NCBI GenBank assembly: GCA_963770895.1
Contig: CAVYRF010000002.1
Coordinates: forward strand, 3,424,001 to 3,488,000
DNA: 64,000 nt
Direction of reading: 5' to 3'
From: an uncultured Acidobacteriota bacterium
GTDB taxonomy: Bacteria > Acidobacteriota > Thermoanaerobaculia > Multivoradales > UBA5704
Under the pieces are notes generated by a model. It ran no database searches. It had not been told where the DNA came from and saw only the letters and a program-made list of their open reading frames with translations. The position numbers were made by a program, and so were the translations under genes. Shown here in pieces: positions 45,658 to 64,000 of this stretch; within the stretch, counting starts at the first letter, position 1; the number at the start of each line of letters is the position of its first letter.

Positions 45658-46188
45658 ATGAGACTTTTGGCAAGCATCCTGCTGCCGGGCCTGCTGCTGG
45701 TCTGCGGTGACGCATTCTGCGCCCAGGACGGCTTCAGCGGCGTCCGCTGCGGCGCTGACGTCGCCAAGGCGCTGCGCGGGCAGGTCATGTCCGATGAAGC
45801 GGTCGCGACGATCGAACACAGGCACAAGGACCTGGACCTCAAGGACCTGGGAGCGGAAGAGCTGGAAAATGGCTGGTCCCTGATCTCCTGGCGGATCTGT
45901 GGCAGTGAGCTCATGCTGATCGAGGACCATCATTCCAGAGTGCGCGACGTCCTGAAGGTCCCGCCGCATTCGCGGAGCGCGCCGGAAACCAGCGGGCCGT
46001 GCACGTTGAAGGGCGCAGCCATTCCTGGGGCCGTCGTCGCGATTCTCGACCCGAAACCGGGAGCTGCCGATCTCCCGGCATCCGCCGCCTGGAAGATCGA
46101 CGAAAAAGCCGGCACGTTCATCCCACTGCCCACGGCGGGGCTGCTCTGCTCGCGAGCCGGGATCCTCACCGTCGATGGCGGCAGCTAG
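45658..46188 (+). CDS. Secreted hypothetical protein
   Basis: Signal peptide followed by a globular region with 4 Cys. Confidence 0.7.
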   Translation: MRLLASILLPGLLLVCGDAFCAQDGFSGVRCGADVAKALRGQVMSDEAVATIEHRHKDLDLKDLGAEELENGWSLISWRICGSELMLIEDHHSRVRDVLKVPPHSRSAPETSGPCTLKGAAIPGAVVAILDPKPGAADLPASAAWKIDEKAGTFIPLPTAGLLCSRAGILTVDGGS

Positions 46189-46242
46189 CCCGCGGCCGCG
46201 CCGCCACCGCGCAGCCGTGCGCGGCGGCGGGGGAGCTGCAGC

Positions 46243-46458
46243 TCAGGGAAGGGTGACGGGAGTGCCGCAGATGAACTTGCCGTTGCAGATGAAGCCGGCG
46301 CAGGAGCCGCCGCCGCCCACGAACTCCATGCAGGCCATGTAGATCGGGCAGCCATCGGCGCCCACCCGCGGGCTGGCAGCCGCGACCTGGGCCGGGACGA
46401 GCCACGTGATGGTGGCCAGGGTGAGGACAAGAGCGATCAGGAGCTTGACGCGCTTCAT
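46243..46458 (-). CDS. Small secreted Cys-rich peptide
   Basis: GAGGTG RBS, signal peptide and 5 Cys in the mature part. Confidence 0.65.
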   Translation of the reverse strand: MKRVKLLIALVLTLATITWLVPAQVAAASPRVGADGCPIYMACMEFVGGGGSCAGFICNGKFICGTPVTLP

Positions 46459-46593
46459 GGGGCACCTCATTTCGGACACATCGTTTGCATAATTGAGACT
46501 TACTGTTCATAAGGGTGCATTGTGACGGCGGGGTCGTGACCACCCGAGCCGGCTCGCCACCCCGCGGCGCACGGCGCATCAACCTCCCGTTGC

Positions 46594-47943: not shown

Positions 47944-49238
47944 CAGATTCCCCCGAGGAAGCGGCCCGGGCTCAACGTCCCGTCCGGATCGAAGCGCTGC
48001 TTGAGGCGTAGCATGACCGGCTGGGCGTCGGAAGCGGGGCCCCAGACGTCCAGGCCGCGCTTGACCTCAGGCGGGCAGCCGAGCGCGACGATCGTGCCGC
48101 CGGGCCTGGTCTGGCTGCTGCCGTTGTCGCCGTTGCCGGCCAGCTCCTGGCGCAGCTCGAGCAGCGTTGCGCGCAGCGCCGGCGGGTCGCCCTCCAGCCG
48201 CACGGCGCCGGCGCCGACGCCCTGCACCACCAGCCGCCAGGCCAGCGACCGCGCCGCGGCCGCACGCTCGATCAGCGTGCACACCGCGGCGATGCGCGCC
48301 GGCAGCAGGCTGACCTTGGCGACCAGCGCCGGGGCGGCGCCGTCCCAGATGGCCTGGTGCGAGGTCCAGACATCGGCCGGCGCGTCGGCGGGGGCCGGCG
48401 AGGCGGCGGCCAGCTGCAGCACCTGGTCGACCTGGGCCTGGATGCCGGCCGCCGTACCATCGAAACGGACGTCGAGCTGCGCGCCGCCGGGCGCCGCGCG
48501 CAGCTGCAGGCCGATGGGCGTCAACCTGGAAGCCAGGATCGACAGCAGCAGCTGGTTGAGCGCCGCGGGCGTGCCGTGGAAGGAGAGGCTGCGCGTCGCC
48601 CTGGGCAGGGGGTGGAGGCGGAAGACCGCCTGCACGATCACCCCCAGCGTGCCCAGCGCGCCGGTGAACAGCTTGGCCAGGTCGTAGCCGGCGACGTTCT
48701 TGACCACCTTGCCGCCGCTTTTGGCCAGCGTGCCGTCGGGCAGCGCGACGGTGATGCCGATGATGAGGTCGCGCAGCGAGCCGTAGCGGAGGCGCAGCGT
48801 GCCGCTGTCGTTGGTCGAGAGGATGCCGCCCAGGGTCGCCCGCTCGGGCCACAGGGGGTCGAGGGCCAGGTGCTGGCCGTGCCGGGCGAGAGCTGTTTGC
48901 AGGTCGGCGACCCGGCATCCGGCTTCGGCGATGACCGTCATGTCGGCCCAGGCATGCTCGAGGACGCCGTTGAGACGCGCCGTCGACAGCAGCAGGTCGC
49001 AGGCGGCGGGCGGATTGCCCCAGCCCATCTTGGTGCCGCCGCCCCGCGGCGTCACCTTGAGCCCGGCGCCGTGCGCCCAGCGCAGGCAGTGTGCCAGCTC
49101 CTCGGCGGTGCCGGGTTCGGCGATCCTTTGCGGCTCGACGCCGTCGACGGTGTCGGCCGCGGTGGCCGGCCGCAGGTGCTCCTGCCCGAGGATCGCCGCC
49201 AGCTCCGGCCACTCCACCTGCTGCCCCGCCGCTGGCAT
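47943..49238 (-). CDS. glcE: Glycolate oxidase FAD-binding subunit
   Basis: RGGGTK, ATLGG and GGKVVKNVAGYDL. Confidence 0.9.
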   Translation of the reverse strand: MPAAGQQVEWPELAAILGQEHLRPATAADTVDGVEPQRIAEPGTAEELAHCLRWAHGAGLKVTPRGGGTKMGWGNPPAACDLLLSTARLNGVLEHAWADMTVIAEAGCRVADLQTALARHGQHLALDPLWPERATLGGILSTNDSGTLRLRYGSLRDLIIGITVALPDGTLAKSGGKVVKNVAGYDLAKLFTGALGTLGVIVQAVFRLHPLPRATRSLSFHGTPAALNQLLLSILASRLTPIGLQLRAAPGGAQLDVRFDGTAAGIQAQVDQVLQLAAASPAPADAPADVWTSHQAIWDGAAPALVAKVSLLPARIAAVCTLIERAAAARSLAWRLVVQGVGAGAVRLEGDPPALRATLLELRQELAGNGDNGSSQTRPGGTIVALGCPPEVKRGLDVWGPASDAQPVMLRLKQRFDPDGTLSPGRFLGGI

Positions 49239-49263
49239 CGCCGGTTTCCCGCCTCGCCGCTGG

Positions 49264-50712
49264 CTAGAAGCGTTCCGCCACGCCCGCGGTTTCCAGCGGA
49301 TGCGGTTGGTACACGCCGGGCTTTTCGCCGCACAGGCGCGGACGGGGAAAGACCTTGTCGGGATTGGACAGGTGCTCGGGATCGAAGGCGCACCGCACCA
49401 GCTGCATGGTGGCCAGGTCGGGTTCGGCGAACATCTCGGACATGAACATCTTTTTCTCTTCGCCGACGCCGTGTTCGCCGGTGATGGAGCCGCCGGCCCG
49501 GATGCACAGGCGCAGGATCTCGCCGGCCAGCGCTTCGGCCAGCTTGTCCTGGCCGGGCACCGCGTCGTCGTAGAGGACCAGCGGGTGCAGGTTGCCGTCG
49601 CCGGCGTGGAAGACGTTGGCGACGCGCAGGCCCATTTCGGCGCTGAGCCGGCTGATCTCGCTCATGACGAAGGGCAGCGCCGTGCGCGGGACCACGCCGT
49701 CCTGCACGATGTAGGCGGGCGAGATGCGCCCCACGGCGGCAAACGCGGCCTTGCGTCCCGTCCAGACGCGGGCGCGCTCGTCATCCGACTGCGCCAGGCG
49801 GATCTCCCAGGCGCCGCACCGGGTGCAGGCCTCGACCACCTCTTCCATCAGGGCTTTGACCTCGGGCGCCGGCCCGTCGAGCTCGACCAGCAGCAGGCCG
49901 CCGCAATCGGGATAGTTGGCGTGCACCGCGGCCTCGGCGGCCTGGATCGCCAGGTTGTCCATCATTTCGATGGCCGCCGGCAGCATCCCGGCGGCGATGA
50001 TGGCGCTCACCGCGGCGCCCGCTTCATTGGTGGAATGGAACGCCGCGAGCAGCACCTGGACGACCTCCGGCCGCTTCATGATGCGGAGGGTGACCTTGGT
50101 GGCGATGCCGAGCGTGCCTTCCGAGCCGACGAAGACGCCGCACAGGTCGTAGCCGGGACGGTCGACGGTGGTGTCGCCGAAGTGAGCCAGCGAGCCGTCG
50201 GGCAGCACCACCTCCAGGCCAAGGACGTGCGTGGTGGTGAAGCCGTACTTCAGGCAGTGCGCGCCGCCCGAGTTCTCCGCGACGTTGCCGCCGATCGAGC
50301 AGACCTGCTGCGACGAGGGATCGGGCGCGTAGAAGTAGCCGTCCGCCGCCACCCGCGCGGTCACGTTGAGGTTCATCACGCCCGGTTCCACCACCACCCG
50401 CAGGTTGGGCAGGTCCACCTCCAGGATGCGGTTCATGCGCGACAGGGCGATGACGATGCCGTTGGCCGCCGGCAGCGCCCCGCCGCTCAGCCCCGTGCCC
50501 GAGCCGCGGGCCACGAACGGGATCTTTTCGCGGTGGCACACGCGCACGACCGCCTGCACCTCTGCGGTCGACGTCGGCAGCACCACCGCCTGCGGCAGCA
50601 CGCGGAACACGGTGAGGCCGTCGCACTCGTAGGTGCTGAGCTGCTCCGGCTCGGTGATCAGATCCGCCGCGCCGACGATGGCGCGAAGCTCATCGAGGAT
50701 CCTGGCTTCCAT
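49264..50712 (-). CDS. glcD: Glycolate oxidase subunit
   Basis: RGSGTGLSGGA, YAPDPSSQ, HAGDGNLHP and GEHGVG. AGAGGAGG RBS. Confidence 0.93.
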   Translation of the reverse strand: MEARILDELRAIVGAADLITEPEQLSTYECDGLTVFRVLPQAVVLPTSTAEVQAVVRVCHREKIPFVARGSGTGLSGGALPAANGIVIALSRMNRILEVDLPNLRVVVEPGVMNLNVTARVAADGYFYAPDPSSQQVCSIGGNVAENSGGAHCLKYGFTTTHVLGLEVVLPDGSLAHFGDTTVDRPGYDLCGVFVGSEGTLGIATKVTLRIMKRPEVVQVLLAAFHSTNEAGAAVSAIIAAGMLPAAIEMMDNLAIQAAEAAVHANYPDCGGLLLVELDGPAPEVKALMEEVVEACTRCGAWEIRLAQSDDERARVWTGRKAAFAAVGRISPAYIVQDGVVPRTALPFVMSEISRLSAEMGLRVANVFHAGDGNLHPLVLYDDAVPGQDKLAEALAGEILRLCIRAGGSITGEHGVGEEKKMFMSEMFAEPDLATMQLVRCAFDPEHLSNPDKVFPRPRLCGEKPGVYQPHPLETAGVAERF

Positions 50713-50938
50713 GGGATGCCCTCCTCTTTGCCGCGGGTGGCCGGCGCCCACCCGACGCGGCCGTGGCGCCCGCCCCTGATCGCGCTTGCCCTGCACCTGG
50801 ACTGGAGGCTGGACGATCGGCATGACCCTACGCCAGGGCCGGCGCGGAATCAAGATGCGCCCGCGGGGCCGTCCGAGGCGAGGGCATGCCGGTGCGCATA
50901 TCGACATCCGCACCGGGATGCCGGATGCTGTTGCGGCC

Positions 50939-52966
50939 ATGCGGGCCGCTTTTGGTATCGGGGACGGCACTGTGCGGGCGGCGAAAGCGCGTTTGCGCGG
51001 CCGCCGGTTCCAGGCCGTGACATGGCTGGTCTTGCGCAGTGTGGGGGTGGCGGTCGTGTGCTGCACGCCGGTGGCGGCGCAGGTCGGGGTGGGGCCACAG
51101 CCCGCGCCGGCGGCGCCGGCGATCGCGGCGCCGCGCGACGTTGCGTTTGAGGGTGTCGTCGGGCTGAGCGTCGACGCCAGGGATACCGCGCACAAGATCT
51201 TCGCGGTGCACGAGACAGTGCCGGTGGCGGCGGGGGCGGAGGCGCCGGGCGAGATGGTGCTGCTGTATCCGCGGTGGGAGACGGGGAGCCACGCGGCGAC
51301 CGGCTCGGTTGCCAACCTGGCGGGGCTGATCGTGCGGGCGGCGGGGCGGCGGCTGGAGTGGCGGCGCGACCCGGTCGACGTGTTTGCGTTCTGGGTGGCA
51401 GTGCCGGCCGGTGCGCCGGCGCTGGAGGTGGATTTTCAGTACCTGTCGCCGCTGGCGCCGCGGGCGGGCGCGGTGGTGATGACGCCTGACATCGTGGTGG
51501 TGCCGTGGCAGCGGTTGGTGCTGGTTCCCGCGGGTTGGTTCCTGCGCGATATCCAGGTCCAGGCAGACCTCACCCTGCCGGCCGGTTTTCAGTCCGCGTC
51601 GTCTTTGGAAACCGCGCGCGTCGCCGGCGGGACGGTCTTTTTCCGCACGGCGACGGTCGAAACCCTGGTGGATTCGCCGGTCTACGCCGGCCGGTGGTTC
51701 CGGCGCCTGGTTCTGACGCCGCCGGGTGAGGCGCAGGTGGCGCTGGACGTCGTGGCCGACCGGGCCGCGGACCTGGAGGCGGCGCCGGGCGAGCTGGCAC
51801 GCTGGCGCGCCGTGGTCGCGCAGACGCTGCGGCTGTTTGGGTCGCGGCACTACGATCACTACGATCTGCTGGTTTCGGTGAGCGACATCCTGCCGAGCAG
51901 CGGCGGCCTGGAGCACCTGCGGTCGGGCGAGATCAACCTGCCGGCCGATTTTCTGCGCGCGCCGCAGGACCACCTGCTCGGCCAGGGCCTGTTGGCGCAC
52001 GAATACGTCCACTCCTGGAACGGCCGCCTCCGGCAGCCGGCCGATCTGTGGACGCCCGACCTCAACACGCCGATGCGGGACAGCCTGCTCTGGGTCTACG
52101 AAGGCCTGACCGAGCTGTGGGGCGACGTCCTGGCCGTCCGCGCGGGACTGCTCACTGCCGAGCAGGCGCGCGACGTCCTGGCGCTGGCCGCCGCCACGGC
52201 CCAGACCCGCGCCGGGCGATCCTGGAAGTCGCTCGCGGACAGCAACAACGATCCGCTGTTCGACGCCGGGCACCCGGTTTCCTGGCGGGACTGGCAGCGG
52301 CGCGAGGACTATTACGGCGAGGGGGCGCTGCTGTGGCTGGACGTCGACGCCCAGATCCGGCAGCGGACCGGCGGCGCGCGCAGCCTGGACGACTTCGCCC
52401 GCGCCTTCTTCGGGCCGCCCGACGGCGGCCAGGTCGTCCACACCTACACGGAAGAGCAGGTGTGCGCGGCGCTGGCCCGCATCGCGCCATTCGACTGGCA
52501 GGGCTACTTCCGCGGCCGGCTGCAAAGCCACGACGCGGACCAGGTCCTGGACGGCCTGGCGCGCGCGGGGTACCGGCTGGTCTATGCGCCGGAGCCCACC
52601 GCCGCCTTCCGCGAGAGCGAGGCGGAGGACGGCGTCGCAGCAGATCTTTCCTTTTCCATCGGCCTCGCCGTCGCCAAAACGGGCGTGGTGAAGAGCGTCG
52701 CCTGGGAGGGCGAGGCCTTTCGCGCCGGGCTCGCTCCCGGCGTGCAGATCACCGCGGTCGACGGCCGGCCTTTCGACGCCGGTGACCTGGTCCAGGCCGT
52801 CGCCCGGACGACCGATCCCCTGGACATCACCTTTGTGCAGGACGGGCAGACGCGCACCGCCCGCCTGGCCCACCAGGACGGCCTGCTCTATCCGCGCCTG
52901 GCCAGGCTCCCCGGCACAGCCGACGGCCTGGCCGCGCTCTGGGCGCCCCTGGGGGCTGTTCCCTGA
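50939..52966 (+). CDS. M61 glycyl aminopeptidase with PDZ domain
   Basis: GGLEH, AHEYVHSWNG, LWVYEGLT and a C-terminal PDZ. Start uncertain. Confidence 0.88.
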   Translation: MRAAFGIGDGTVRAAKARLRGRRFQAVTWLVLRSVGVAVVCCTPVAAQVGVGPQPAPAAPAIAAPRDVAFEGVVGLSVDARDTAHKIFAVHETVPVAAGAEAPGEMVLLYPRWETGSHAATGSVANLAGLIVRAAGRRLEWRRDPVDVFAFWVAVPAGAPALEVDFQYLSPLAPRAGAVVMTPDIVVVPWQRLVLVPAGWFLRDIQVQADLTLPAGFQSASSLETARVAGGTVFFRTATVETLVDSPVYAGRWFRRLVLTPPGEAQVALDVVADRAADLEAAPGELARWRAVVAQTLRLFGSRHYDHYDLLVSVSDILPSSGGLEHLRSGEINLPADFLRAPQDHLLGQGLLAHEYVHSWNGRLRQPADLWTPDLNTPMRDSLLWVYEGLTELWGDVLAVRAGLLTAEQARDVLALAAATAQTRAGRSWKSLADSNNDPLFDAGHPVSWRDWQRREDYYGEGALLWLDVDAQIRQRTGGARSLDDFARAFFGPPDGGQVVHTYTEEQVCAALARIAPFDWQGYFRGRLQSHDADQVLDGLARAGYRLVYAPEPTAAFRESEAEDGVAADLSFSIGLAVAKTGVVKSVAWEGEAFRAGLAPGVQITAVDGRPFDAGDLVQAVARTTDPLDITFVQDGQTRTARLAHQDGLLYPRLARLPGTADGLAALWAPLGAVP

Positions 52967-53114
52967 AAGCGGATGGCGGGAAAGGCGGCCCGGATTCAGT
53001 CCCCTGGTGCACCCCGCATCTTGGACCTGGGGGGAGGAGCGGTGTGCCGGGGCGGTCTCTGCGCCCGCCTGCCTTCCGGCGAGAGCCATCTCGCATTTTC
53101 AACGGAGACGCGAC

Positions 53115-53309
53115 ATGAAGAAGAACTTCAGGAAGCTGCAGCTGTGCCGTGAAACCTTGCACTTCTTGACCCCCGGCGATTCCGGGCTGCGCAATGCCAA
53201 GGGCGGCCTCATCACCTATGGCGGCCCTTGCACCATGACCGCTGCCAAGGACTGCACCGTCTGCACCAATTCTTGTCCGACAGAGTGCGGCGCGAACTGC
53301 CCCCAGTAG
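53115..53309 (+). CDS. RiPP (lanthipeptide-like) precursor peptide
   Basis: GGAG RBS, leader KLQLCRETL...AKGG and a 33-aa core with 6 Cys and 7 Ser/Thr. Confidence 0.75.
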   Translation: MKKNFRKLQLCRETLHFLTPGDSGLRNAKGGLITYGGPCTMTAAKDCTVCTNSCPTECGANCPQ

Positions 53310-53937
53310 CGGCCAGGCGATCCGATTGAACCTCAGTTCCGGCGGTGGCAGGAGGACTTGCCACCGCCGGCTGCGATGCCGCCCGGAGGCTCCCAGGGTG
53401 GCGGCAACCCTCATTTCCGGGATGCAGATGACAGCCTCAAGCGGGTGGTTGCGGCGTGGCAGTGCGTCGGGCGCCCGGCAATCGCTGCGGTCGCGCGCAC
53501 ACGTGTCGGCGCCCGCCGCAGACTTTAGGAGTAAGCCCCGCGCCGGTGTCCCCCGCGGCTGAGCCTGCCGCGCTGTTACGAGTCGCGAAAGGGGGACACC
53601 GGCCGGCGAGCGCTGTGCGGCGCACTGCCGCAATCGCGGGCTCGCAGCAAGATCTGGCACAAGGGGGCGTCTCCTTGCGCCTCGTCAACGAAAGCATACG
53701 GACCGTCCGAGCAAGCAGGTGCGGTTCGTGTGCGAAGGGCTGGCTGTTGCCCGAGCGCGCACCGTGGGCTCAGGGTGTGGCGAGTGCGCGGTTGTGTGGG
53801 CAATGATCTTGCTGGGGCAGATGGATGGAGTGGCCGCTATCGGCAGGGGTGAGAAGCGCACGGGGGCCGCGGTGCGCGCGAGGCGAGAGACTCGAAGGAG
53901 ATCGGACGGGTGCCGTTCGTGCCGTCGATCTACATCT

Positions 53938-54354
53938 TCATGGATTTGGGGAGTACGCCTGAACCTTCATGGCGCGAAGCGCTTGAACGAGCCTTGTGTC
54001 AAGGGTAATCACCGCGGCTCCCTGGCGGCGCGCCAAGACGGCGTACATCATGTCGTAGACTGGATGGTGATAGGTCGCGGCGGCTACGAGCGCTTCGTGC
54101 GCCAAGACGGTTCCGGGTACCAGGGGCTGCCCGGCCAGGGCTAGTGCCATAGCCAGCCGGTCCATCGCCTCTTCGGCCGTGATGTCACCGTGCTCAACGT
54201 ACCTCCAGAGGCCGTTGGCAACCTCACTTGCGAAGAGGTCGGGCGCGGTCACGAGCTGGGCCTTGTCGAGACGCTCTGCGATTGCGTCAGAGCTTTTTCC
54301 ATCCATGACGAGATGAAGCGCCGCGGAGGCATCGAGGACGACCCGTGACTTCAC
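53938..54354 (-). CDS. vapC: VapC/PIN-domain toxin
   Basis: VVLDASA, EVANGL, YDMMY and TLDTRL. Overlaps the antitoxin stop. Confidence 0.88.
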   Translation of the reverse strand: MKSRVVLDASAALHLVMDGKSSDAIAERLDKAQLVTAPDLFASEVANGLWRYVEHGDITAEEAMDRLAMALALAGQPLVPGTVLAHEALVAAATYHHPVYDMMYAVLARRQGAAVITLDTRLVQALRAMKVQAYSPNP

Positions 54355-54596
54355 CGCTCGCGGTCCTCGCGGATGAGCTGCTCGGCAGGAATCGAAAGCT
54401 CCCGTAGGCCGCTCTCACGTCTCCGCTCGCGCAGCTCGGCGAGCACCTGCTTCCGGGTTTCGCGCACTGTGAGCTCAGGCAGACGGCGCAGCTCGACGAT
54501 CGCCTGCTGGGCCATGCTCCGGTTCTCTGCCTTGGCGCGAGCGGCCAGGGCCTCGTAAACATCCGGCGGTAGGTCCCTGATCTGAAGTGAAGCCAT
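54351..54596 (-). CDS. FitA-like ribbon-helix-helix antitoxin
   Basis: MASLQIRDLPPDVYEALAARA...LIREDRER. Confidence 0.85.
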   Translation of the reverse strand: MASLQIRDLPPDVYEALAARAKAENRSMAQQAIVELRRLPELTVRETRKQVLAELRERRRESGLRELSIPAEQLIREDRER

Positions 54597-54790
54597 GGAT
54601 ACCCCTCTCTCTGTGCATCATATTGCATGCAGAATGGTGAGAGCAAGGGCTCCTCCGACATCCGTGGCGATCAACGGGTGCAGTAGCCCCGGCATGGCAC
54701 AGGTGGATTTCTTCGAGCCCACGGTCGATGCGGCGGCGAGCGAACTATGGCGCGTTGACAGTGGGAGAGGGTCGGGTCACAGTGGTACTC

Positions 54791-55042
54791 ATGAGTATGA
54801 GTAAGCGCATTCAGATCCCGGTTGGCGAGCAGGATTGCTCCCATTTCCAGGCCGCCGCGCGGCGCGCGGGTCTGCCGCTCGCCGAGTGGGCTCGGCGGCA
54901 GCTCCGCGAGAAAGCCGACGAGGCGCTGCGTAGGGAGGCCCTCTCCCCCACTGAGGCTCTCGCCAGGTTGAAGGAGCTCAAGGCGCCCATCGCCCCAATC
55001 GAGAAGATGCTCGACGAGTCGGTCACCGGACGCTACACGTGA
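54791..55042 (+). CDS. Putative RHH antitoxin
   Basis: KRIQIPV..AARRAGLPLAEWAR. Palindrome TACTCATGAGTA (54786-54797) lies over the start; TTGACA is upstream. Confidence 0.7.
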   Translation: MSMSKRIQIPVGEQDCSHFQAAARRAGLPLAEWARRQLREKADEALRREALSPTEALARLKELKAPIAPIEKMLDESVTGRYT

Positions 55043-55274
55043 TCCGGCGGTCGCCTTCCAGCTCTTCGACGTGGCGACTCAGCTAGGCCTGCCGATCCTC
55101 GCGGTCACGGAGCGCTCGCTCCTGGAGGCCCGCAGGATTCTCGAAGATCACCCGCGCCTGTCCACCCGCAACGGCATTCATCTCGGCGTCATGCGCGAGC
55201 ATGGGATCGAAGAAGTGCTCTCCTACGATCGTGGCCTCTCGCAGGTGTCCTGGGTCAAACGCCTCGAGGCCTGA
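55039..55274 (+). pseudogene. Internally deleted VapC/PIN toxin
   Basis: GTGA overlap with the antitoxin stop. Only the PIN C-terminal half (LSTRNGIHLG..LSYDRGL) remains, out of frame with the GTG. Confidence 0.65.
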
Positions 55275-55355
55275 CGCCGGCGTCCAGAGACGGGTTGTCA
55301 TCTCGCCCTCGCAGATGATGAGCCGCTCTGCCGGAGTAGGTGAACAGTACCTGGA

Positions 55356-56102
55356 CTACGACGTCCCAGGTGGGCCGCCGGGGATTTGCAGCCTTTCCTC
55401 CCATTTCGCCAGGTCTACGCCCTTCACCAGGAGCCAGAGGGCTAGCGAGGACTCCGCGATGAGGGGCGGCAGCATGACGGCGGGGAAGAGCATCGATGCG
55501 AGCCCGGGGGCGAGAAGCAGCGCGAAGCTGTTCAGCAGGTAGCAAACGCCGGCGGCCTGCATCAGGAATCCGAGGGTTTTCGGCAGGAAGCCGGAGCGGC
55601 GGATCAGGTGGCCTTCGAGGAGGCACACCGCACCGAAGAAGATCAGCCCGATGCCGAAGCCGTGGTCATGGGCCCTGAGGCAGACGTACGTCAACGCATA
55701 GAGCTGCTGCGGCGTCCACGCCTGCAAGTACGCTGCGTCGCTCAACAGGAACAACGGCAGGACGAGCATGATCTTGTTGGCAACGAGCACGGCGGTCTGG
55801 ACCACGTTGAACAGCAACACGCTCAACGCCAGATTGCGGTTGACCGTCCTGAACAAGAGATACAAGGCCGTCATCACCACGACATCACAGAGATGCATCA
55901 ACAGGTCCGCCGCGATGCTTGCGCGCCACAACGATTGTGAAGCCACGATGTTGTGGGCGGTTGCCGCCGCGTCGCCGGTGACGATGATCTTGCCGCGGAC
56001 GAATACCTCCGCCCATCCTCCCGCCACGATGAGAACCAGGTAGAGAGCGCCGGCGATTCGTGCATAGAGCTGAGGTGACTGCTTTGCCGGAACCTTCGCC
56101 AT
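55356..56102 (-). CDS. DUF4386 family membrane protein
   Basis: ARIAGALYL, GDAAATAHNI, RSGFLPKTLG and LWLLVKG. Confidence 0.85.
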   Translation of the reverse strand: MAKVPAKQSPQLYARIAGALYLVLIVAGGWAEVFVRGKIIVTGDAAATAHNIVASQSLWRASIAADLLMHLCDVVVMTALYLLFRTVNRNLALSVLLFNVVQTAVLVANKIMLVLPLFLLSDAAYLQAWTPQQLYALTYVCLRAHDHGFGIGLIFFGAVCLLEGHLIRRSGFLPKTLGFLMQAAGVCYLLNSFALLLAPGLASMLFPAVMLPPLIAESSLALWLLVKGVDLAKWEERLQIPGGPPGTS

Positions 56103-56308
56103 TTCTTTTCCTTACCCGGCCGCGTCACTCTACCGATCGGGCGGGTGACTCGGTTGGTCGCTGTTGAAGTCACTACGGAGCGGCCGGTCGAATAGTTACA
56201 GGGTTGGGCAATCCAGGGCCCGTCCGGGTCCTTGTCCTATAACTTGGCGTCTGGAAACCACTAAGGGGGCAGCTCATCCAGAGCAAACGTCATGCGGAGG
56301 CAACGCAC

Positions 56309-57400
56309 ATGAGATCTCGCGCAATGTTCTACGCGCTCTCCCAGGCGGTCCGGGTCGGGGGGCAGGTCACGAGGTGGGCGCGGCGGCTTGCGCTCTTCGG
56401 CGTCGTGGCGGCGGTCGCCTTGCCCGCGGGGCTGGAAGCGCAGGCCTCGCGGCACTTGCAGCAGGCGGACATCTGGTTCCATCCCTTGCCGTCGGCGTCG
56501 GCGTGGCCCACCGGGGAGCCCGTCGGCGGGTCGACGGATTTTCGCGCGCTGTTCAAGGGCAACGCCCCATGGCCGCGGGCGATCGCGCGGGTCAAGGTGG
56601 TGGGGATGTACGCCGCCTGGATCGTTGCGGCCAGCGATCAGGAATTGAGACAAACTGTCAGTTTTCTCAACCAGCACCACATGGGGATCGAGATCGAAGC
56701 GCCGGCGCTGCAGGCGCCCCCCACCTGTGGCTCAGGCGTGGAAGGGTATGTGCCGTGGGGCCAGTCGCTCTACGATTTCACCCTTGCCTACCTGAATCGG
56801 TTGAAAGCGCTCGACGCCCAGGTGGCCTTCGTGAAGGTCGACGAACCGTTTTTCTTCGGCAGCATCTCGGACGACCCCCGCGCCTGCCGCCTGCCGGTCG
56901 AGGAGGTGGCCTTGGCGGTCGGGCAGTACGCGCGGCTGGTCAAGAGCGTCTATCCTCATGCCGACGTCGGCGACGTGGAACCGATCATCGAGGGCCCCTA
57001 CCCTGTCGATGTCGTGAGCGCGATGGCACAGTGGCACGACGCCTACCGGACGGTCACCGGGGCGCCGTTCCCGTTCTTCTTCGCGGACATCGATTTCAGC
57101 AACCCCGCGTGGCCGACGATCGTCAAGACCCTGGAGGACCAGACGCGGCAAAGCGGCATGCAATTCGGCATCATCTACATCGGCGACGAGCAGGACACCT
57201 CCGATGCGGAATGGGCGGACAAGGCCGTGGCGCGCTTTCGGATCTACCAGCAAGAGAGCGGCGGCCGGCCCGACCACGTGCTGTTCCAGTCCTGGGAGCC
57301 GCACCCGGCGCACTGCCTGCCGGAAACCGATCCAACCACCTTCACCGGCGTGATCGACGCCTACCTCCGCGAGATGACGCCCTACGGCAGCTGGCCCTAA
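56309..57400 (+). CDS. Secreted hypothetical protein
   Basis: GGAGG RBS, signal peptide and an alpha/beta-like mature domain (VDEP, GDVEP, FQSW). Confidence 0.75.
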   Translation: MRSRAMFYALSQAVRVGGQVTRWARRLALFGVVAAVALPAGLEAQASRHLQQADIWFHPLPSASAWPTGEPVGGSTDFRALFKGNAPWPRAIARVKVVGMYAAWIVAASDQELRQTVSFLNQHHMGIEIEAPALQAPPTCGSGVEGYVPWGQSLYDFTLAYLNRLKALDAQVAFVKVDEPFFFGSISDDPRACRLPVEEVALAVGQYARLVKSVYPHADVGDVEPIIEGPYPVDVVSAMAQWHDAYRTVTGAPFPFFFADIDFSNPAWPTIVKTLEDQTRQSGMQFGIIYIGDEQDTSDAEWADKAVARFRIYQQESGGRPDHVLFQSWEPHPAHCLPETDPTTFTGVIDAYLREMTPYGSWP

Positions 57401-57487
57401 CGGCTCGTTTCGGGCTCTGGCCAGCTGCTCTGAGCGGGACTGCTCCTGGATAAACGGCAAAGTGCGCCGGCCTGCGGCGCCGCCTGG

Positions 57488-57519
57488 CTTATGAACGCAG
57501 CCCCAGGGGTGTGTGCACC
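57488..57519. repeat. Palindromic att-like site, left copy
   Basis: CTTATGAACGCAGCCCCAGGGGTGTGTGCACC is 27/32 identical to 63667-63698. Confidence 0.65.
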
Positions 57520-57524
57520 ATTTC

Positions 57525-58031
57525 TTACTGACCCTTCGCGGGCGGCTTCCTCGCCCGGACTACCCCGAGAGTCGTAGAATCTGAAGACTCTTCCTTTTCA
57601 ACTTGCCTCGGAGACAGTCTATCCAAGACCAGATCCACTAGAATCCTGGCGGTCTTCTCTGAATCGGCAAATTGGCTTAAGTGACTTTTCACTTCAGCGA
57701 CCAACTCCTCTCTTGCGCCGCGCTCTGGCAAATTAATCGAGCTTCCGACAAACTCATGTAGCTCCTGTCGCAGCTGGTCCAACGACTTCTCTGCCTTGTC
57801 GCCAGTGCCGATGCGCTTTGAAATCAAACCGCTAGTGACGGCAACAAAGATCGGGATCAAAGCCTTGCAAACCAGTATATCCACGAGGATACTGCCATCT
57901 AGATTGAGCGCCTGGCCTACGCCTGATGCTCTGGCTGTAATGGTTGCTGTGATCACTTCGCCTGCTGCTTTAAAGCAGGTTGCAACTTCATGCCTAGTTA
58001 CGGTGGCGCGATTAGAACCTCCGGCATCCAT
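57525..58031 (-). CDS. Hypothetical protein with one hydrophobic segment
   Basis: Lower-GC ORF coupled to the upstream gene by a TGATG overlap. Confidence 0.7.
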   Translation of the reverse strand: MDAGGSNRATVTRHEVATCFKAAGEVITATITARASGVGQALNLDGSILVDILVCKALIPIFVAVTSGLISKRIGTGDKAEKSLDQLRQELHEFVGSSINLPERGAREELVAEVKSHLSQFADSEKTARILVDLVLDRLSPRQVEKEESSDSTTLGVVRARKPPAKGQ

Positions 58032-59575
58032 CAGAACCTCCGCGTTTTGTAAAAGTCAGACCATACCTGTCTGGCGAAGCACTGTGGAATTTCGGATGAA
58101 TGCGGAATCGATTCGCAGCTTCCAGATCTAAGAGGGCAGGGATAAAACGCATACTGCGTAGCCACGGGGCAGCAGAATTCCGTTCCCGACCAAACGGACT
58201 CCGAGAGGCCAATGAAGATCAATCGCCCAAGATGGGTATCCATTACTGAATGGGGAGACGCCGGTATAGTGTAGGCCGTTCGTCCTTCCTTCGTCTTCTC
58301 TGCTGTAATGAAGAGCGGTGCCGCGAGTTCAACCCTTTCCTTAGTGCTGAACATCGGATGTAGGCCCAGATCCATCCCGATCGACAGAAAATGAGCTCGA
58401 TAAACGCGCAGCGGATCTTTTAGCAAGAGCTCCATGCCTTTGATTCGGGCCCGGTGAAAGATTTCAAAGAGGTCCCGCACGCCTGTTAACATGGCGAGCT
58501 TTAACAGCTCTTCAAAGAGCTGTATCCAACGCCTAGATACCTCGTCGTGACGAAGGAACGAAGTACCGCTGCTCGGTCCTGACGCAAGCCTGTTGCAGTA
58601 GTTGATATGATTTACAATCAACCCCATAAACTCAGTATGTAAATAAAGCTCGTTAAGGTTGAACTCATTACGATGCTCCATGATGCATGGCATCACCGAG
58701 CCTGCGAGCTTCAAGAAACGGACCGCTGGTACCACGTCTTGTAAGGCAGAGCCATTGTTGAACTCATCCCCCTCTGGCAAAGGGCAAGTATGGAGTGCAA
58801 GGTCAAGCAGGAAAAGAAGAAGGCCGAACTCCGCAGCCCGAGGACAGTGTGGATACAATTGGTGTTGTCTGTTGGCTGTATCGAAGCGAATGGCCTCGAC
58901 GTACTTTTTGAAGGTATGAATGACCCTTTGGCAAGAAGTCATTCGCTCAGGCCGGAAGTATGGGGCTAGATCATTCACAACAGATTTGCTGAAAGCGTCT
59001 TTATAATGGAGCATCAAGTGGGCGATGCGGCGTTCGGTCAAGATGGCAGCGTGGCATTCAAAGAGTTCTTGTCCGGTCAAGCCAAAGCTGATCTCCAATC
59101 TATCCGCGATCGACGGGTGAGCGCGACTTTCGGCTTCCAGCACCCTGTCGAGGGTCCGCGAAGAGTAGATAATCTCCTGGAGGAAATGCCCTTCTTGATG
59201 GCGACCGTGTATCCGATTAGCAAAAGAATTATCGACCATCTCAGGGCTACTGTCGCTACCGCGGTTAGATTCGGGCTTGAGTCCTTGGGAAGCGTGAACG
59301 GCTATCGCGTTTTCGTCGGCATTAAGCTGCACCCAGGCACAGATGCCGAGTGTGTGGTCCTGGATAAAGTGAGTGGACTCATGGAGGAGCGTTACGAGGC
59401 CGAGAAATGCATCATGAGTCTTGAATTCCGTGCCCTCTTTGAGGGTACCGTCCGGCTTGAAGAGGTCAAGAGGGTTGGACCTCTCAAATGCGGTATACCA
59501 CAGGCGGTCTCCAATCCTGTGATGGCCGAGTATTGGGTTGGTCATAGGAAACCTGTGAAGCATTGCCTCGGACAT
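58031..59575 (-). CDS. Hypothetical HExxH zinc-metallopeptidase-like protein
   Basis: LLHESTHFIQD, a distal ELFECHA and a C-terminal Cys cluster. Lower GC than the backbone. Confidence 0.75.
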   Translation of the reverse strand: MSEAMLHRFPMTNPILGHHRIGDRLWYTAFERSNPLDLFKPDGTLKEGTEFKTHDAFLGLVTLLHESTHFIQDHTLGICAWVQLNADENAIAVHASQGLKPESNRGSDSSPEMVDNSFANRIHGRHQEGHFLQEIIYSSRTLDRVLEAESRAHPSIADRLEISFGLTGQELFECHAAILTERRIAHLMLHYKDAFSKSVVNDLAPYFRPERMTSCQRVIHTFKKYVEAIRFDTANRQHQLYPHCPRAAEFGLLLFLLDLALHTCPLPEGDEFNNGSALQDVVPAVRFLKLAGSVMPCIMEHRNEFNLNELYLHTEFMGLIVNHINYCNRLASGPSSGTSFLRHDEVSRRWIQLFEELLKLAMLTGVRDLFEIFHRARIKGMELLLKDPLRVYRAHFLSIGMDLGLHPMFSTKERVELAAPLFITAEKTKEGRTAYTIPASPHSVMDTHLGRLIFIGLSESVWSGTEFCCPVATQYAFYPCPLRSGSCESIPHSSEIPQCFARQVWSDFYKTRRF

Positions 59576-60227
59576 TGAGCGATGTCCGACGAACGGATCT
59601 GTGCCAGGAGGTCAAAATCACACTATAGCGTCTCGGCCTTTCTTGGCTGAGAGAACCTTGGTGACGTGAGGTTCTCCTCCTCTCTTCACCGGCTTACACC
59701 AAATGATAACATAGTGCGGATTCCGGCGAAGGCGACCACCCATTCCGACGGAAGGCGACCACCCGTCGGAGCGAGGCGGTGAGCGGAGGCTCATGGTTGG
59801 TTGAGGTGGTCGGCTTGGGCTTCTCCTGTGGTCCTTTTTCAGTGTATATGACCTCGTCGCCGGGGTTGTGGAAGGTCGTGGTAACCGGCGAGGGCGGGTG
59901 GTGGAGGGCGGGTGTGGTGGGGGGCCGGGAGCCGGTTTCCAAGCGGCTGTGGGAACGGCGGACCGGGGGCCGCGGCGGGCGGGGGCAGCGGAGCGTAGCG
60001 ACGCGGGCGGCCCACGTTGGGTCCGCGGTTTCCATCAGCCGCGGCACCTTCCACAGCCCATGCGTGCGTTGGGGGGTGGTGGGGGTGGGTGGGGGACGGG
60101 CCGGGCGGTGGGGCGGCCGGGCGGCGGCCGGCCGCTGTCGAGGTCTCGCCGGACGCCATAGGCGAGGCGCTGGGGCTCGCGGGGGGGCGGGGGGCACCAG
60201 GCGCCGCCACGGCGCGCCGCGATCGCG

Positions 60228-60980
60228 TCACGACGGCCCCTGGGCCGGCGCCGGCGCCTTGTCCTTGCGCTTCGACTCGCCCTTAAGCGGCAGCTCGTAG
60301 GCGTTGTGCACCAGACGGTCGAGCACGGCGTCGGCCAGCGTGGCGTCGCCGATCGCATCGTGCCAGGCGGCGACCGGCAGCTGGCTCGTCACCACCGTCG
60401 AGCGCCTGCCGTAGCGATCTTCGAGGATCTCCAGCAGATCACGCCGCTGAGCGTCGGTGAACGGATGCAGACAGAGGTCGTCGAGCACGAGGACGTCGGC
60501 CCGGGCAAGGTTGGCCAGCAGCTTGGAGTACCGGCCGTCCGCTTTGCCGGTGGCAAGCTCGGACAGCAGCCGTGGCACACGGTGATACAGCGCGGTGAAG
60601 CCTTCCCTGCACGCTTTGTGCGCCAGCGCACAGGCCAGAAAGCTTTTCCCCGTGCCGGTTTTCCCCGTAATCAAAATGTTAAGGTGTTGGGTGATCCACT
60701 GGCATGAGCACAGTGCCAGGAACAGCGCCCGATCGAGACCGCGCGGCAGGCGCAGGTCCACGTCTTCGACCGCGGCGGCCTGGCGCAGCCGTGCCTTGGC
60801 GAGACGGTCCTTCAGTCGGCGGTTCTCGCGCTCCGTCATCTCGCGATCGACCAGCAGCCCCAGGCGCTCGGTGAAGCCAAGCTCGTCGATGCCGGTCATC
60901 TGCAGCTGCTCCTCGAGCCCCTTGGCCATGCCGGTCAGCCGCAGGGCCTGGAGCTTGTCGAGCGTCGGATGGGTCAGCAT
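60228..60980 (-). CDS. istB: IS21 helper ATPase
   Basis: GKTGTGKS, LVLDD and DAVLDRLVHNA. Confidence 0.96.
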   Translation of the reverse strand: MLTHPTLDKLQALRLTGMAKGLEEQLQMTGIDELGFTERLGLLVDREMTERENRRLKDRLAKARLRQAAAVEDVDLRLPRGLDRALFLALCSCQWITQHLNILITGKTGTGKSFLACALAHKACREGFTALYHRVPRLLSELATGKADGRYSKLLANLARADVLVLDDLCLHPFTDAQRRDLLEILEDRYGRRSTVVTSQLPVAAWHDAIGDATLADAVLDRLVHNAYELPLKGESKRKDKAPAPAQGPS

Positions 60981-62533
60981 GGCTTCTGCTCCCCGCCGTA
61001 GTACGAAGCGCCGCGCAGGTTCTCATGCACGAGGGGTCGCCGCGCCGACTCGGCGGCCAGATCCATCTGCCGATCCAGCCCTCCCTGCAGGATGGAGCGC
61101 ACGCTGCGGAACGACGCGCCTTCGATCTCCAGCGCCAGCTGGCACGCCGCTTCCAGCCGCTCGTTGCCATACCGCTGCCCGAGCCGCAAGATCCCCAAAC
61201 ACGAGCGGAAGCCATGCTGCGGGTGCACTCGCGTCGACATCACCTGCTCGATCAGGCCGGCGACCGATGGCCCCGTCGTCTGCGACCACTGCACCAGCCG
61301 CTCGGGCGTCCACTCCGCATACGCCCGATGCGGCCGCGGCATGTGCTCGTGCTGCGTCGTGTGGGCTCCCCGGCGAAAGCAGCGCACATGGCTCGCCACC
61401 CGCTTGCTCTTGGCGAAGAACTCCACCGTTCTCGCGCTCAGCCGCACGTCCAGCTGCTGGCTCACCAGCTGGTACGGCACGCTGTAATAGTGGCCGTCGA
61501 CTTCGACGTGGTAGTCCGCCACGACGCGCCCCTTTTTCCACTCGGCGTAGCTGAAGCCCGACGCCGGCAGCGCCCGCAGAGCCGGCCGCTCCATGCTCTC
61601 AAAGAGCGACCGGCGCGAGCCCTCAAGCTTGCGGAATTGACGCTCGTTCAAGCGTATCAAAAGCATTCCAATCGCCTCGTTGAGCTCAGCAAGAGAAAAG
61701 AACTTCCGGTGCCGCAATCGGGCCAGGATCCAGCGTTCGACGACCTGCACCCCCACCTCCACTTTGGCCTTGTCGCGGGGCCGCCGCACGCGCGCCGGCA
61801 TCACTGCCACGCCGTAGTGCAACGCCAAATCGTGATAGGTAGGGTTCAGCTCCGGCTCGTACCGGCACGGCCGGCTGACCGCCGACTTCAAGTTATCGGG
61901 AACCACCATTTCGGTTAGGCCGCCGGCGAACTCAAAAGCCCGCACGTGCGAGCCGATCCAGTCCGCCAATCCCTGACTCCACGTCGCCTCCGCGAAGGTG
62001 TAGTTGCTCGCCCCCCACACCGCCACGAAGATCTGCGCCGCGTGCACCTCTCCCGTGCCGGCGTCGACCACCGGCACCGTCGCGCCGCAGTAGTCGACGA
62101 ACAGCTTCTCGCCAGCCCGATGCACCTGGCGCATCGACAGGTCCACCCGCCCCCGCCACTGGCCGTACAGCTCGCAGTACCGGCTGTAGCCGTAGCCGTG
62201 AGGCTCCCTCTCCCGGTACTCCTCCCACAGCAGCGACAGGGTCACCCCTTTGCCCTTGAGCTCGCTGTGCACGGCCGCCCAGTCCACCGCTGGCCGTCGC
62301 GCCGCCGGCACCTGCTCGACCACCGGGTAGAGCCGACGCTCCAGCGCCTCCTCGCCCAGCTCCGCCGCCACGGACCAGTCCAGCCCGCTCCTGCGCGCAC
62401 GGGCCACGCACTCCACAACCGTCGTCTTGCCTATCCCGCAGCAGTCCGCCACCTGCCGCTGGCTCAGACCGCAGACCCACAGCAATCGCAACATCTCTCG
62501 AATCTTTCTCACGTTCACTCTCCGTGCCGGCAT
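60974..62533 (-). CDS. istA: IS21 transposase
   Basis: GEKLFVDY, VVPDNLKS and RPRDKAKVE (DDE). Confidence 0.96.
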   Translation of the reverse strand: MPARRVNVRKIREMLRLLWVCGLSQRQVADCCGIGKTTVVECVARARRSGLDWSVAAELGEEALERRLYPVVEQVPAARRPAVDWAAVHSELKGKGVTLSLLWEEYREREPHGYGYSRYCELYGQWRGRVDLSMRQVHRAGEKLFVDYCGATVPVVDAGTGEVHAAQIFVAVWGASNYTFAEATWSQGLADWIGSHVRAFEFAGGLTEMVVPDNLKSAVSRPCRYEPELNPTYHDLALHYGVAVMPARVRRPRDKAKVEVGVQVVERWILARLRHRKFFSLAELNEAIGMLLIRLNERQFRKLEGSRRSLFESMERPALRALPASGFSYAEWKKGRVVADYHVEVDGHYYSVPYQLVSQQLDVRLSARTVEFFAKSKRVASHVRCFRRGAHTTQHEHMPRPHRAYAEWTPERLVQWSQTTGPSVAGLIEQVMSTRVHPQHGFRSCLGILRLGQRYGNERLEAACQLALEIEGASFRSVRSILQGGLDRQMDLAAESARRPLVHENLRGASYYGGEQKPC

Positions 62534-62797
62534 CTCGCTCCCTTCGTCGATGGAGACGAGCATGCCAGAGGTACGGAGCCGCCGCTTGTTGTCACCGCCC
62601 TTCTCGATCTCGATTCCGATCGAAGGCGACCACCCTTCCGGGGATGGCGACCACCCTTCCGGGCCAAGGGCTAAAAGTGGTCGCCTTCAGACTGGAATGG
62701 GGTGGTCGCCTTCCGTCGGAATCAGTGGTCGCCTTGCGACCGGAAACGGTGGTCGCCTTCGACCGGAATACGCATAACATAGCGCGGTAACGACACC

Positions 62798-63229
62798 GTG
62801 GGAGGGGTGCAGGCCGGAGCCCGTCCCACGGCCGGGCGCGCCGGTCGGAGCTCAGCGCCGCCGCCAGAAGCCTCGGTCCCTGGATACCTTTTCCGGTCCG
62901 GCGTTGGAGCGCGGCCTCTTCCTCGCGGAGGCACCTTCAGTCCGGGAACCCTCTTACCAGGAAGAAAACCCCGGAGCCGGAGCTATACGGTGTCATCTGC
63001 ACGCCGAAAATGGACCCAGTTGCAGGCTAAATTCCCCCCCTCGGAGGCAAGGGCGATGGAGCGGGAATGGTCCAAGCTCCCCGCGGCGCCTGAAGGCGCC
63101 GTGGAGCGGGAGTTGATCGGCGAACAGGTCTGGTCGGCGATGGAGGTCCTGCGGGGTAAGGCTTATCGAAGAAGGCGATTCGTCCGTCTGTACAAGAAGC
63201 CTTTGGCCTTTTTCCTCGACAGCGAGTGA
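62798..63229 (+). CDS. Possible hypothetical protein or fragment
   Basis: ORF only; the C-terminal half looks helical and protein-like. No recognised motif. Confidence 0.25.
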   Translation: MGGVQAGARPTAGRAGRSSAPPPEASVPGYLFRSGVGARPLPRGGTFSPGTLLPGRKPRSRSYTVSSARRKWTQLQAKFPPSEARAMEREWSKLPAAPEGAVERELIGEQVWSAMEVLRGKAYRRRRFVRLYKKPLAFFLDSE

Positions 63230-63242
63230 CGCCTGGCGAGGC

Positions 63243-63617
63243 TTACCCGCGCGAGGCAAGCCACCGCTCGAAAGCTCGCCGGATGCGCGGGCATGGGTGT
63301 TTAATCTCGTCGCGCTCCCAGGCAGAGACGGTCGATGGGTCGAGACCGAACCGGCGGGCCAGCGCTTCCGCAGAGAGTCCCGCGGCCTGCCGCGCGGCCC
63401 TCACGTGTCCGCCAAAGGTTTCTGGCTCCGGCCGGGGGTCGTAGCCGAGGAAGGCGAGGATGCCGGGCAGGAAGCGCAGCCCCGGCGTGCCCCGCCCCGC
63501 CTCCCAACTCGCGAGGCTCGGCTGCGAGCAGCCGATCTCGCGGGCCGCGTGTCGCTGGCGGAGGCCCCGGTCAAGGCGCGCCCGCCGGAGATGCTCGCCG
63601 AAGGTCGCCGGCGCCAC
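63243..63617 (-). CDS. Tandem XRE helix-turn-helix protein
   Basis: Two HTH_3-like repeats (TFGEHLRRAR..SWE; TFGGHVRAAR..AWE). The frame stays open upstream into the palindromic site. Confidence 0.8.
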   Translation of the reverse strand: MAPATFGEHLRRARLDRGLRQRHAAREIGCSQPSLASWEAGRGTPGLRFLPGILAFLGYDPRPEPETFGGHVRAARQAAGLSAEALARRFGLDPSTVSAWERDEIKHPCPRIRRAFERWLASRG

Positions 63618-63666
63618 CGGGTAACCCTGCGGATTCGACTTCCGTCCTCGTAAGCGGACACGAACA

Positions 63667-63698
63667 CTTATGCACGCAACCCAAGGGCTGCGTGCACC
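63667..63698. repeat. Palindromic att-like site, right copy
   Basis: Contains TGCACGCA-A-CCC-AA-GGG-C-TGCGTGCA (63671-63696). Confidence 0.7.
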
Positions 63699-63699
63699 T

Positions 63700-63780
63700 T
63701 TTGTGATCCGCTTGCGGGGCAGGATTCTTCGCCCTGGCTATCCTCAGAACCGTCGCACCCTGGGCGAGCACCTCAAGTAG
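63700..63780 (+). pseudogene. Truncated paralog of the XRE gene N-terminus
   Basis: FVIRLRGRILRPGYPQNRRTLGEHLK-stop, compared with VRVRLRGRKSNPQGYPVAPATFGEHLRR on the opposite strand. Confidence 0.6.
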
Positions 63781-64000
63781 CCGAAGTCCCAGGGGAGCCG
63801 AGGCGGAGGCGCCGGTGCACTTGGTAAGGAGCAGGGGCCGACGCAGTAATCTCGTCGCTCGGCCCGAGGTGTAGATGGGTTGCTATTCATGCGGTGAATG
63901 GATATCATTCGCGGCGTGAATGAACCATCCCGCACCCTGTCGCGATTCCTTGCGCCCCGCCTGGCCGTTCTCCTCAAGTCGTTTCCGGCAGTCGTCCTCA

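Follow-up and report, generated by a model that had tools for sequence, protein, structure and literature searches.

Genes of the Mg-chelatase (comM) type are the target of 12.4% of the predicted site-specific large serine recombinases (LSRs) (Durrant et al., 2022; PMC10083194), and the sr1WO recombinases of phage WO integrate into a Mg-chelatase gene as well, an HTH_XRE regulator being typical of that group (PMC9203015). Such elements and prophages share several traits with those treated here: the recombinase has Resolvase and Recombinase domains, its gene lies at the end of the element by the attachment (att) site, that site takes the form of an imperfect inverted repeat, relatives have a comM gene split there, and an XRE-type regulator is part of the element. 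The staphylococcal cassette chromosome (SCC), with its recombinases CcrAB and CcrC and its ccr-less pseudo-SCC forms, is a second system for comparison (e.g. bioRxiv 10.1101/336396); it too grows by serial accretion at the sites of one recombinase and contains segments bounded by att repeats, some of which have no recombinase and are thought to depend on one supplied in trans. The present text concerns a stretch of 64,000 nt (the window) in the genome of an uncultured acidobacterium of the class Thermoanaerobaculia (contig CAVYRF010000002.1, here C2, positions 3424001-3488000; genome of 8.16 Mb, 70.7% GC), in which two short palindromes, L and R, enclose the interval L-R. These palindromes belong to a family of sites that mark recombination joints between different DNAs and that border directly on LSR genes and XRE starts. 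They are probably the att sites of a family of integrative elements moved by LSRs; L, R and a third site just past the window, S3, would be scars of such elements and L-R a composite leftover.

The two sites had been described in an initial annotation, made from the sequence alone, as direct repeats at 57488 and 63667 and as imperfect palindromes around a central dinucleotide, and both descriptions hold: 27 of 32 nt are identical (83% over 36 nt when 57488-57523 is set against 63667-63702, repeat family D7), and each palindrome is 26 nt long. An IUPAC pattern of the site gives four strand-matches in the window, all at L and R, against a mean of 0.01 in shuffled sequence, and none of 100 shuffles reaches four. 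R joins an intact XRE gene (A-type) to a remnant of another (B-type), so that the XRE N-termini said to read outward both ways from R are indeed present, intact on the minus strand and as a truncated homologue on the plus strand. Together with its two arms R makes an extended inverted repeat, and the DNA hairpin of 63640-63730 reaches -23.8 kcal/mol (z = -5.2); L has no hairpin of note (z = 0.2). L is the left edge of the low-GC, foreign DNA and has a single arm, of XRE type, on its right. Its left flank does not count as an arm: compared with six real arms at 12-120 nt from the centre, it is no closer to them than its shuffles are (equalled by 40-493 of 500), whereas for real arms against each other only 0-1 of 500 shuffles are as good. 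The same comparison fails to confirm the frameshifted XRE trace that had been read leftward from L. The DNA to the left of L is ordinary and native-looking, with a 363-aa gene whose GC content at third codon positions (GC3) is 0.88. On the right, the D-type arm resembles intact XRE starts of relatives for about 57 nt and diverges beyond, and it is 78% identical to the non-XRE arm of a site at C2:4620606. The hix and gix sites of small serine invertases are 26 bp long as well, with two 12-bp inverted half-sites and a 2-bp centre; here, in contrast, the recombinases are LSRs of 520-555 aa, and the sites join unrelated DNAs instead of flanking an invertible segment.

The link to LSRs comes from elsewhere in the genome and from relatives, which were collected through an XRE protein search and are for the most part metagenome-assembled genomes (MAGs) of Thermoanaerobaculia. 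Two paralogous open reading frames (ORFs) of the window genome, C2:5378285-5379850 and C1:~121880-123496, encode proteins with Resolvase and Recombinase domains, and both genes read through or end in palindromes (C2:5379799 and C1:123367, respectively). In the same-genus genomes an LSR 3′-end adjoins 3 of the 14 displayed sites (L058, L059 and L063), an LSR adjoins a site in locus L055 too, and MAG loci L008 and L009 read LSR, palindrome, XRE in succession. A conserved end module by the att site consists of a 221-233-aa protein, whose gene was seen in both own-genome copies, a 992-997-aa TrwB/TraG-like ATPase and the LSR; this hints that full elements may be conjugative or mobilisable.

Integration into comM is seen in one relative, G041, where the gene is split on one contig: residues 366-526 adjoin an XRE start (L007), and residues 1-373, 48.7 kb away, adjoin an LSR gene at its 3′-end, the LSR sharing 78% identity with that of C2. 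The break falls in the first Cys codon of the comM CPCG motif, the same centre is found at both junctions, and the rebuilt joint of the element is symmetric at 16 of 30 positions versus 7 for attL, 5 for attR and 6 for attB. An XRE homologue lies beside a C-terminal comM fragment in L010 and L016 as in L007, and also in four MAGs of other phyla (L023, L027, L029 and L030). In the window genome comM is intact, and the elements therefore sit elsewhere. A candidate element on contig C1 is bounded by C1:71834, where an intact XRE follows to the right of a decayed arm, and C1:123367, where the LSR ends on the left side and a truncated arm lies opposite; 51.5 kb separate these sites, both of which have the centre CA, and the rebuilt joint is symmetric at 21 of 30 positions versus 13, 15 and 16. 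The target of this element would itself have been a scar with arms on both sides. Two other pairings were rejected as attL and attR, C2:5357828 with C2:5379799 on account of their different centres and C2:5348639 with C2:5379799 for want of any gain in symmetry. In one of the other genomes with an XRE homologue beside a comM fragment, a proteobacterial MAG (L054, G044:C2:78001-89500), an 8.7-kb insert interrupts comM; it begins or ends with an XRE gene, carries GGDEF/EAL, response-regulator and HU-like genes and no recombinase, and resembles a remnant of such an element that has become locked in.

Where loci that share a site can be aligned, they change partners at the centre of the palindrome. 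The R locus and the locus at C2:5357828 differ at 36 positions, none of them beyond the first central base: 3 belong to the palindrome and 33 to the 372 nt of left flank, and the 182 nt to the right show no difference; the B-type arm of R is 100% identical to the arm at C2:5357854-5358022, whereas the opposite sides of the two sites are only 91% identical. C2:5379799 and C2:4642642 are identical over more than 200 nt until 4 nt past the centre and unrelated thereafter. One arm type, which occurs at S3, C2:5348639 and C2:5381082, is 88-96% identical for 50 nt, and the likeness ends at the centre. Three independent lines, namely LSR genes that end in the sites, the integration in G041 and the switch of partners, thus show the palindrome centre to be a point of LSR recombination. 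The proposal in the initial annotation that these are att-type sites of a serine recombinase is borne out in this way, and so is the physical tie between XRE gene start and crossover.

The palindrome lies always directly upstream of XRE-type starts, R forms the extended inverted repeat mentioned above, and dimeric HTH proteins typically bind such palindromes, all of which would fit a site that is nothing but the operator or promoter of an autoregulated XRE family, the repeats being paralogous regulatory regions. Such an account is very improbable, however: the comM junctions in L007 and L010 hold the XRE-side half only, beside an intact XRE, while the other half stands at the LSR end 48.7 kb off; palindromes occur at LSR 3′-ends without any XRE (C2:5379799 and C2:4642642); and identity breaks at the centre. 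A dual role as att site and operator is possible. In a complex prediction, the C2:5378285 LSR and the XRE protein scored only 0.07, which supports neither binding nor its absence. The meeting of two inverted arms at a 2-bp spacer, in a region with an insertion sequence (IS) of the IS21 family and other IS-like repeats, might alternatively suggest terminal inverted repeats lying end to end in an element moved by a transposase, for instance an IS circle junction or a miniature inverted-repeat transposable element. This can be given hardly any weight, since no transposase gene goes with the sites, no target duplications flank them, the IS21 copy ends in unrelated sequences with a target duplication of its own, and each arm is either XRE coding sequence or the 3′-end of an LSR gene.

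Almost every arm encodes the motif x-L-R-G-R-x-x-x-P-G-Y-P...T-x-G-E-H-L of the tandem-HTH XRE type, intact or truncated. The A-type XRE protein (63243-63617) matches HTH_31 (5.5e-21) and HTH_3 (1.2e-19), each at residues 6-61 and ~73-106, that is, in two HTH domains, and 59 homologues of it were found. Homologues in the databases are annotated with long N-termini, their frame running through the palindrome. This site-adjoining extension behaves as coding sequence because third codon positions vary most: in a set of 13 XRE sequences, one of them frameshifted, the entropies at codon positions 1, 2 and 3 are 0.75, 0.52 and 1.22 over the 19 codons before GEHL. The place of the GTG start depends on the arm type, being inside the palindrome in one and 7 nt beyond it in another. 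The A-type extension (VRLRGRKSNPQGYP..) is encoded up to the edge of the palindrome and lacks a canonical start in the window copy; the A-type start may be non-canonical, or a frameshifted ancestor may have gained a new internal start. On the minus strand of 63617-63670 there is no in-frame ATG, GTG or TTG for this extension, and other A-type copies conserve an in-frame ATA and an out-of-frame GTG within the palindrome.

A search of the genome and of relatives for the pattern, as the initial annotation had advised, shows that the sites form a family. With up to two mismatches the pattern matches six places in the genome, a reversed-pattern control matching none, and with up to four mismatches it matches ten, one of which (C2:581527) is without arm-like flanks by eye. 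A hidden Markov model (HMM) of the arms, together with inspection, added six further sites (C1:~68140, 71834, 123367 and ~816340, and C2:5348639 and 5381082). The total is about 15 sites, of which nine lie within 6.2 kb of another. The pattern was found in eight of nine same-genus genomes and in none of 31 genomes of other genera, again with no match for the reversed pattern. The site just past the window, S3, joins a remnant of about 110 nt of a third arm type to another B-type remnant. L, R and S3 stand within an 11-kb foreign island and delimit two segments, neither with a serine or tyrosine recombinase. In addition to the ATPase that opens it, R-S3, the cargo of which is of defence and toxin-antitoxin type, contains a hypothetical gene and a wHTH-nucleotidyltransferase with its partner (PADLOC candidate PDC-M05 A/B).

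The free element, as it may be pictured from these loci, would carry attP with the LSR gene ending on one side of it and the tandem-HTH XRE gene starting on the other. Crossover at the palindrome centre would then leave the XRE gene reading inward at one end and the LSR gene reading outward at the other. In other genomes the target is the CPCG codons of comM; here, elements would instead have piled up at earlier att scars, and L, R and S3 would delimit two recombinase-less segments of the foreign island.

The initial annotation had taken L-R for a single cassette-like unit, bounded by the two sites and mobilised in trans, and several findings would suit a recombinase-less cassette that lies in an SCC- or integron-like array and that an LSR from another locus excises and inserts in circular form. 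The sites cluster in the window genome, as said, and six loci of relatives have two sites 0.9-4.8 kb apart. The inter-site segments of relatives are complete small modules (MNT with HEPN, TIR-AAA_35, PemK and SIR2_2) without a recombinase, and PDC-S01 and PDC-M05 stand in a comparable position at the window. A unit of B-type arm and ATPase is present twice at 99.6-100% identity, each copy beginning at a site centre beside a diverged A-type XRE, one of them since rearranged by inversion. The left half-sites of R and S3 match the LSR-side half-sites of the two resident LSRs at 20/22 and 21/24 positions, counted by hand. Finally, a homologue of the 514-aa protein of L-R, 71% identical, lies beside an XRE fragment on another contig (L042), 1.2 kb from an att-like site.

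The ends of L-R itself, in contrast, speak against a single element. Its inward-facing arms are of D-type and A-type and thus non-cognate: the A arm is cognate with the half-site at the C2 LSR end (20/22 positions, counted over the arm strings) and the D arm is not. The rebuilt joint of L and R is symmetric at 16 of 30 positions versus 12, 15 and 15 for the sites themselves, which is no gain. The centres, CA and AA, differ, whereas an LSR needs identical ones, so that L and R have neither the identical centre nor the cognate arms of an attL/attR pair; this difference had already been noted as a caveat, as had the lack of a recombinase, and both caveats stand, window and island being free of serine and tyrosine recombinases. 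The genome holds one copy of the cargo. Five same-genus genomes yielded no empty-site allele, and none can be defined because synteny is lost: homologues of the 363-aa flank gene occur in 4 of 40 relatives, two of which, G003 and G001, otherwise share nothing with the window in this neighbourhood, the 20-kb flanks give only scattered matches against five and against three same-genus genomes, and the conserved core ends near window position 50,880. The circular junction that had been proposed as a check is likewise missing from the contigs of the runs covered below. A discrete cassette is therefore unlikely for L-R; the evidence is against it and it is not established. L-R would be a composite of at least two elements whose recombinases are lost, made of the 57-nt end of one and the XRE-proximal part of the other in opposite orientation, and on present evidence it is no longer a moving unit. 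Sites with mixed arms may have come about by insertion into scars of the other family in opposite orientation, by template switching or by short-homology exchange.

The cassette-like arrangement of the family deserves comparison in its own right. The layout of L, R and S3 within 11 kb and without a recombinase resembles SCC, in layout only; it differs from SCC in that the target is not rlmH/orfX, the palindromes are embedded in XRE starts, the arms are heterotypic and the recombinases are not Ccr. With integrons it shares short, promoter-poor cargo between imperfect palindromes, arrays of 1-6-kb units and cargo of toxin-antitoxin and defence type. It differs from them in having no IntI or other tyrosine recombinase near, and thus no IntI with attI by the array, the recombinase being of the serine type and the sites double-stranded palindromes with XRE-coding arms, not attC. 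Recombinase-less arrays of sites spaced 1-6 kb, with toxin-antitoxin or defence cargo, recur in the window genome and in relatives and may nevertheless reflect accretion of an SCC-like or integron-like kind. Compared with the comM-type LSR elements, comM is intact here, sites occur in arrays, many of them with XRE 5′-ends on both sides, XRE coding sequence starts in the palindrome or a few nucleotides from it, and the segments of the window are without a recombinase. The elements belong with LSR elements of the comM-targeting sort, but here they are probably stacked at their own scars, in SCC-like arrays with XRE-coding arms. A literature search found no paper on the element family of Thermoanaerobaculia and was too unspecific to establish absence.

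Several points weigh against the reading of the palindromes as att scars of LSR elements. According to the arm HMM, 10 of 33 arm-bearing sites in relatives carry arm matches on both sides (two of the ten combine an XRE arm with an LSR-end arm, and some of the loci are probably duplicates), and frequent two-sided XRE sites are a difficulty because they cannot come from one attP x attB event alone. All truncated arms are short, keeping some 35-170 nt of the 414-nt gene, which is not expected from random decay. The polarity of the central dinucleotide follows neither arm type nor LSR consistently from site to site, the two related LSRs reading CA and TG, for example, and simple LSR integration would not predict this. 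Since the window and the island from L to S3 have no LSR, the link to LSRs rests on other loci, and in G041 the 5 nt that attB and attP have in common around the centre leave the precise point of cutting uncertain. Lastly, no recombination product was seen: of 20 matched sequencing runs, available as Logan contigs only (best share 0.49), the contigs of four (X1, X2, X4 and X20) show no joint over the 16 kb that include L, R and S3, rare forms being invisible in contigs.

Table 1. Coordinates of the sites, arms and genes discussed. Plain numbers are window positions; other positions are given with contig (C1, C2) or locus (L).
Feature	Position	Strand	Remarks
Site L	57492-57517		26-bp imperfect palindrome, 12+2+12, centre CA
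D-type arm	57518-57577	+	XRE 5′ remnant, ..LTLRGRLPRPDYPE..
168-aa ORF	57525-58031	-	GC3 0.55; no Pfam or PADLOC family
514-aa protein	58031-59575	-	rare unnamed family, GC3 0.59, HExxH
IS21-family IS	59715-62774	-	istA 60974-62563, istB 60228-60980
A-type tandem-HTH XRE gene, intact	63243-63670	-	annotated GTG start 63617
Site R	63671-63696		26-bp palindrome, 12+2+12, centre AA, two-armed
B-type XRE 5′-end, truncated, MIRLRGRILRPGYPQNRRTLGEHLK*	63697-63865	+	169-nt remnant; stop 63778-63780
AAA_14/DUF4143 ATPase (PADLOC candidate PDC-S01)	63898-64000, continues past the window	+	first gene of R-S3
Site S3	C2:3492511-3492536 (L040:4511-4536)		4.8 kb past the window end; centre CA, same as L
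End module	C2:5374475-5379850; C1:118103-123496; L055:3872-9452		module occurs in G041

All genes of L-R, namely the XRE gene, the IS21 copy, the gene of the 514-aa protein and the 168-aa ORF (Table 1), are on the minus strand. About 3.1 kb of the interval is left once the IS21 copy, which makes up half of it, is taken out, and the low GC that had been noted for the interval is confirmed, at 0.48-0.55 across 57600-59600 (~2.1 kb), the flanks having 0.64-0.72. As had been read, the 168-aa ORF ends with a stop codon (57525-57527) 5 nt from the 32-nt repeat, and the last 17 codons of this ORF, its C-terminal end, are the antisense of the D-type arm remnant. The 514-aa protein has no family in Pfam or PADLOC, and its Atlas neighbours are unnamed clusters; its HExxH motif (H65, E66 and H69) is invariant among six homologues, and its AlphaFold model is poor, with a pLDDT of 49. 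It is a candidate metallopeptidase-like cargo protein, and the HExxH family seems to travel as cargo of different mobile elements. On two metagenome contigs (L043 and L044), 37% homologues of the protein stand in low-GC patches beside a tyrosine-recombinase-like ORF, and a small low-GC ORF comes next after that pair.

The IS21 copy came in later and separates the XRE gene from the 514-aa gene. It has the istA and istB genes (IstB_IS21, 1.9e-67, with rve and Mu-transpos_C_2), terminal multi-repeats (D1, D2 and I1) and an 8-bp target duplication, TAACATAG, at 59707-59714 and 62775-62782, all the marks by which a member of this family is recognised. It is 99.9% identical to C2:1639678-1642736, and further copies are 99.5-99.9% identical. 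Elsewhere in the genome there are three Resolvase-domain open frames of 759 aa with identical scores (C1:1496435, C2:764394 and C2:3311949); two of the three lie within or beside matches to the IS21 of the window and may belong to a repeated composite element.

Across R, the segment that contains the ATPase gene (63866-64000, continuing to L040:1267; 1404 nt) is duplicated at 99.6% identity in inverted orientation at C2:5355350-5356752. The duplicate lies on the other side of a paralogous XRE/palindrome locus, such that a 1.27-kb inversion would relate the two layouts, and its far end carries an IS21-like terminal repeat.

As for the surroundings, no tRNA gene that might have been a target was found in 45000-64000, no Rfam family in 52000-64000 and no sigma-70-like promoter near L or R in a promoter scan. 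There is no match to PF00239 in or near the window, nor a serine recombinase in the island from L to S3, and no match to PF00589, the tyrosine recombinases, in C2:3349582-3826825, the nearest being ~75 kb before the start of the window. To the left of L, two short repeat families (53444-53619 and 53707-53913), with at least 9 and at least 20 further genome copies at 74-91% identity, stand just upstream of a PIN/FitA-like toxin-antitoxin pair (53938-54596).

A more far-reaching proposal, and a doubtful one, is that the palindromes are kept as landing pads of an LSR cassette system with a layout like that of integrons, in which recombinase-less segments of 1-6 kb with defence or toxin-antitoxin genes would be captured, stacked and exchanged by LSRs encoded elsewhere. 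Whatever comes to lie beside a site would receive from it the start codon and the N-terminal peptide of an XRE gene, perhaps also transcription from across the joint, so that insertion and excision would rewire the expression of the regulator. With the palindromes read as att sites of LSR elements, the findings offer a sequence-level handle on the mobile DNA of Thermoanaerobaculia, a scarcely studied group of soil Acidobacteriota: elements of serine recombinases with a recognisable att site, comM as preferred target and secondary sites of pile-up. The matched pairs of LSR and att site are ordinary candidates for the discovery of recombinase tools. If the arrays of att scars are still in use, they would be a serine-recombinase counterpart of the cassette accretion systems and a place for finding new defence genes, of which the HExxH protein may be an example.

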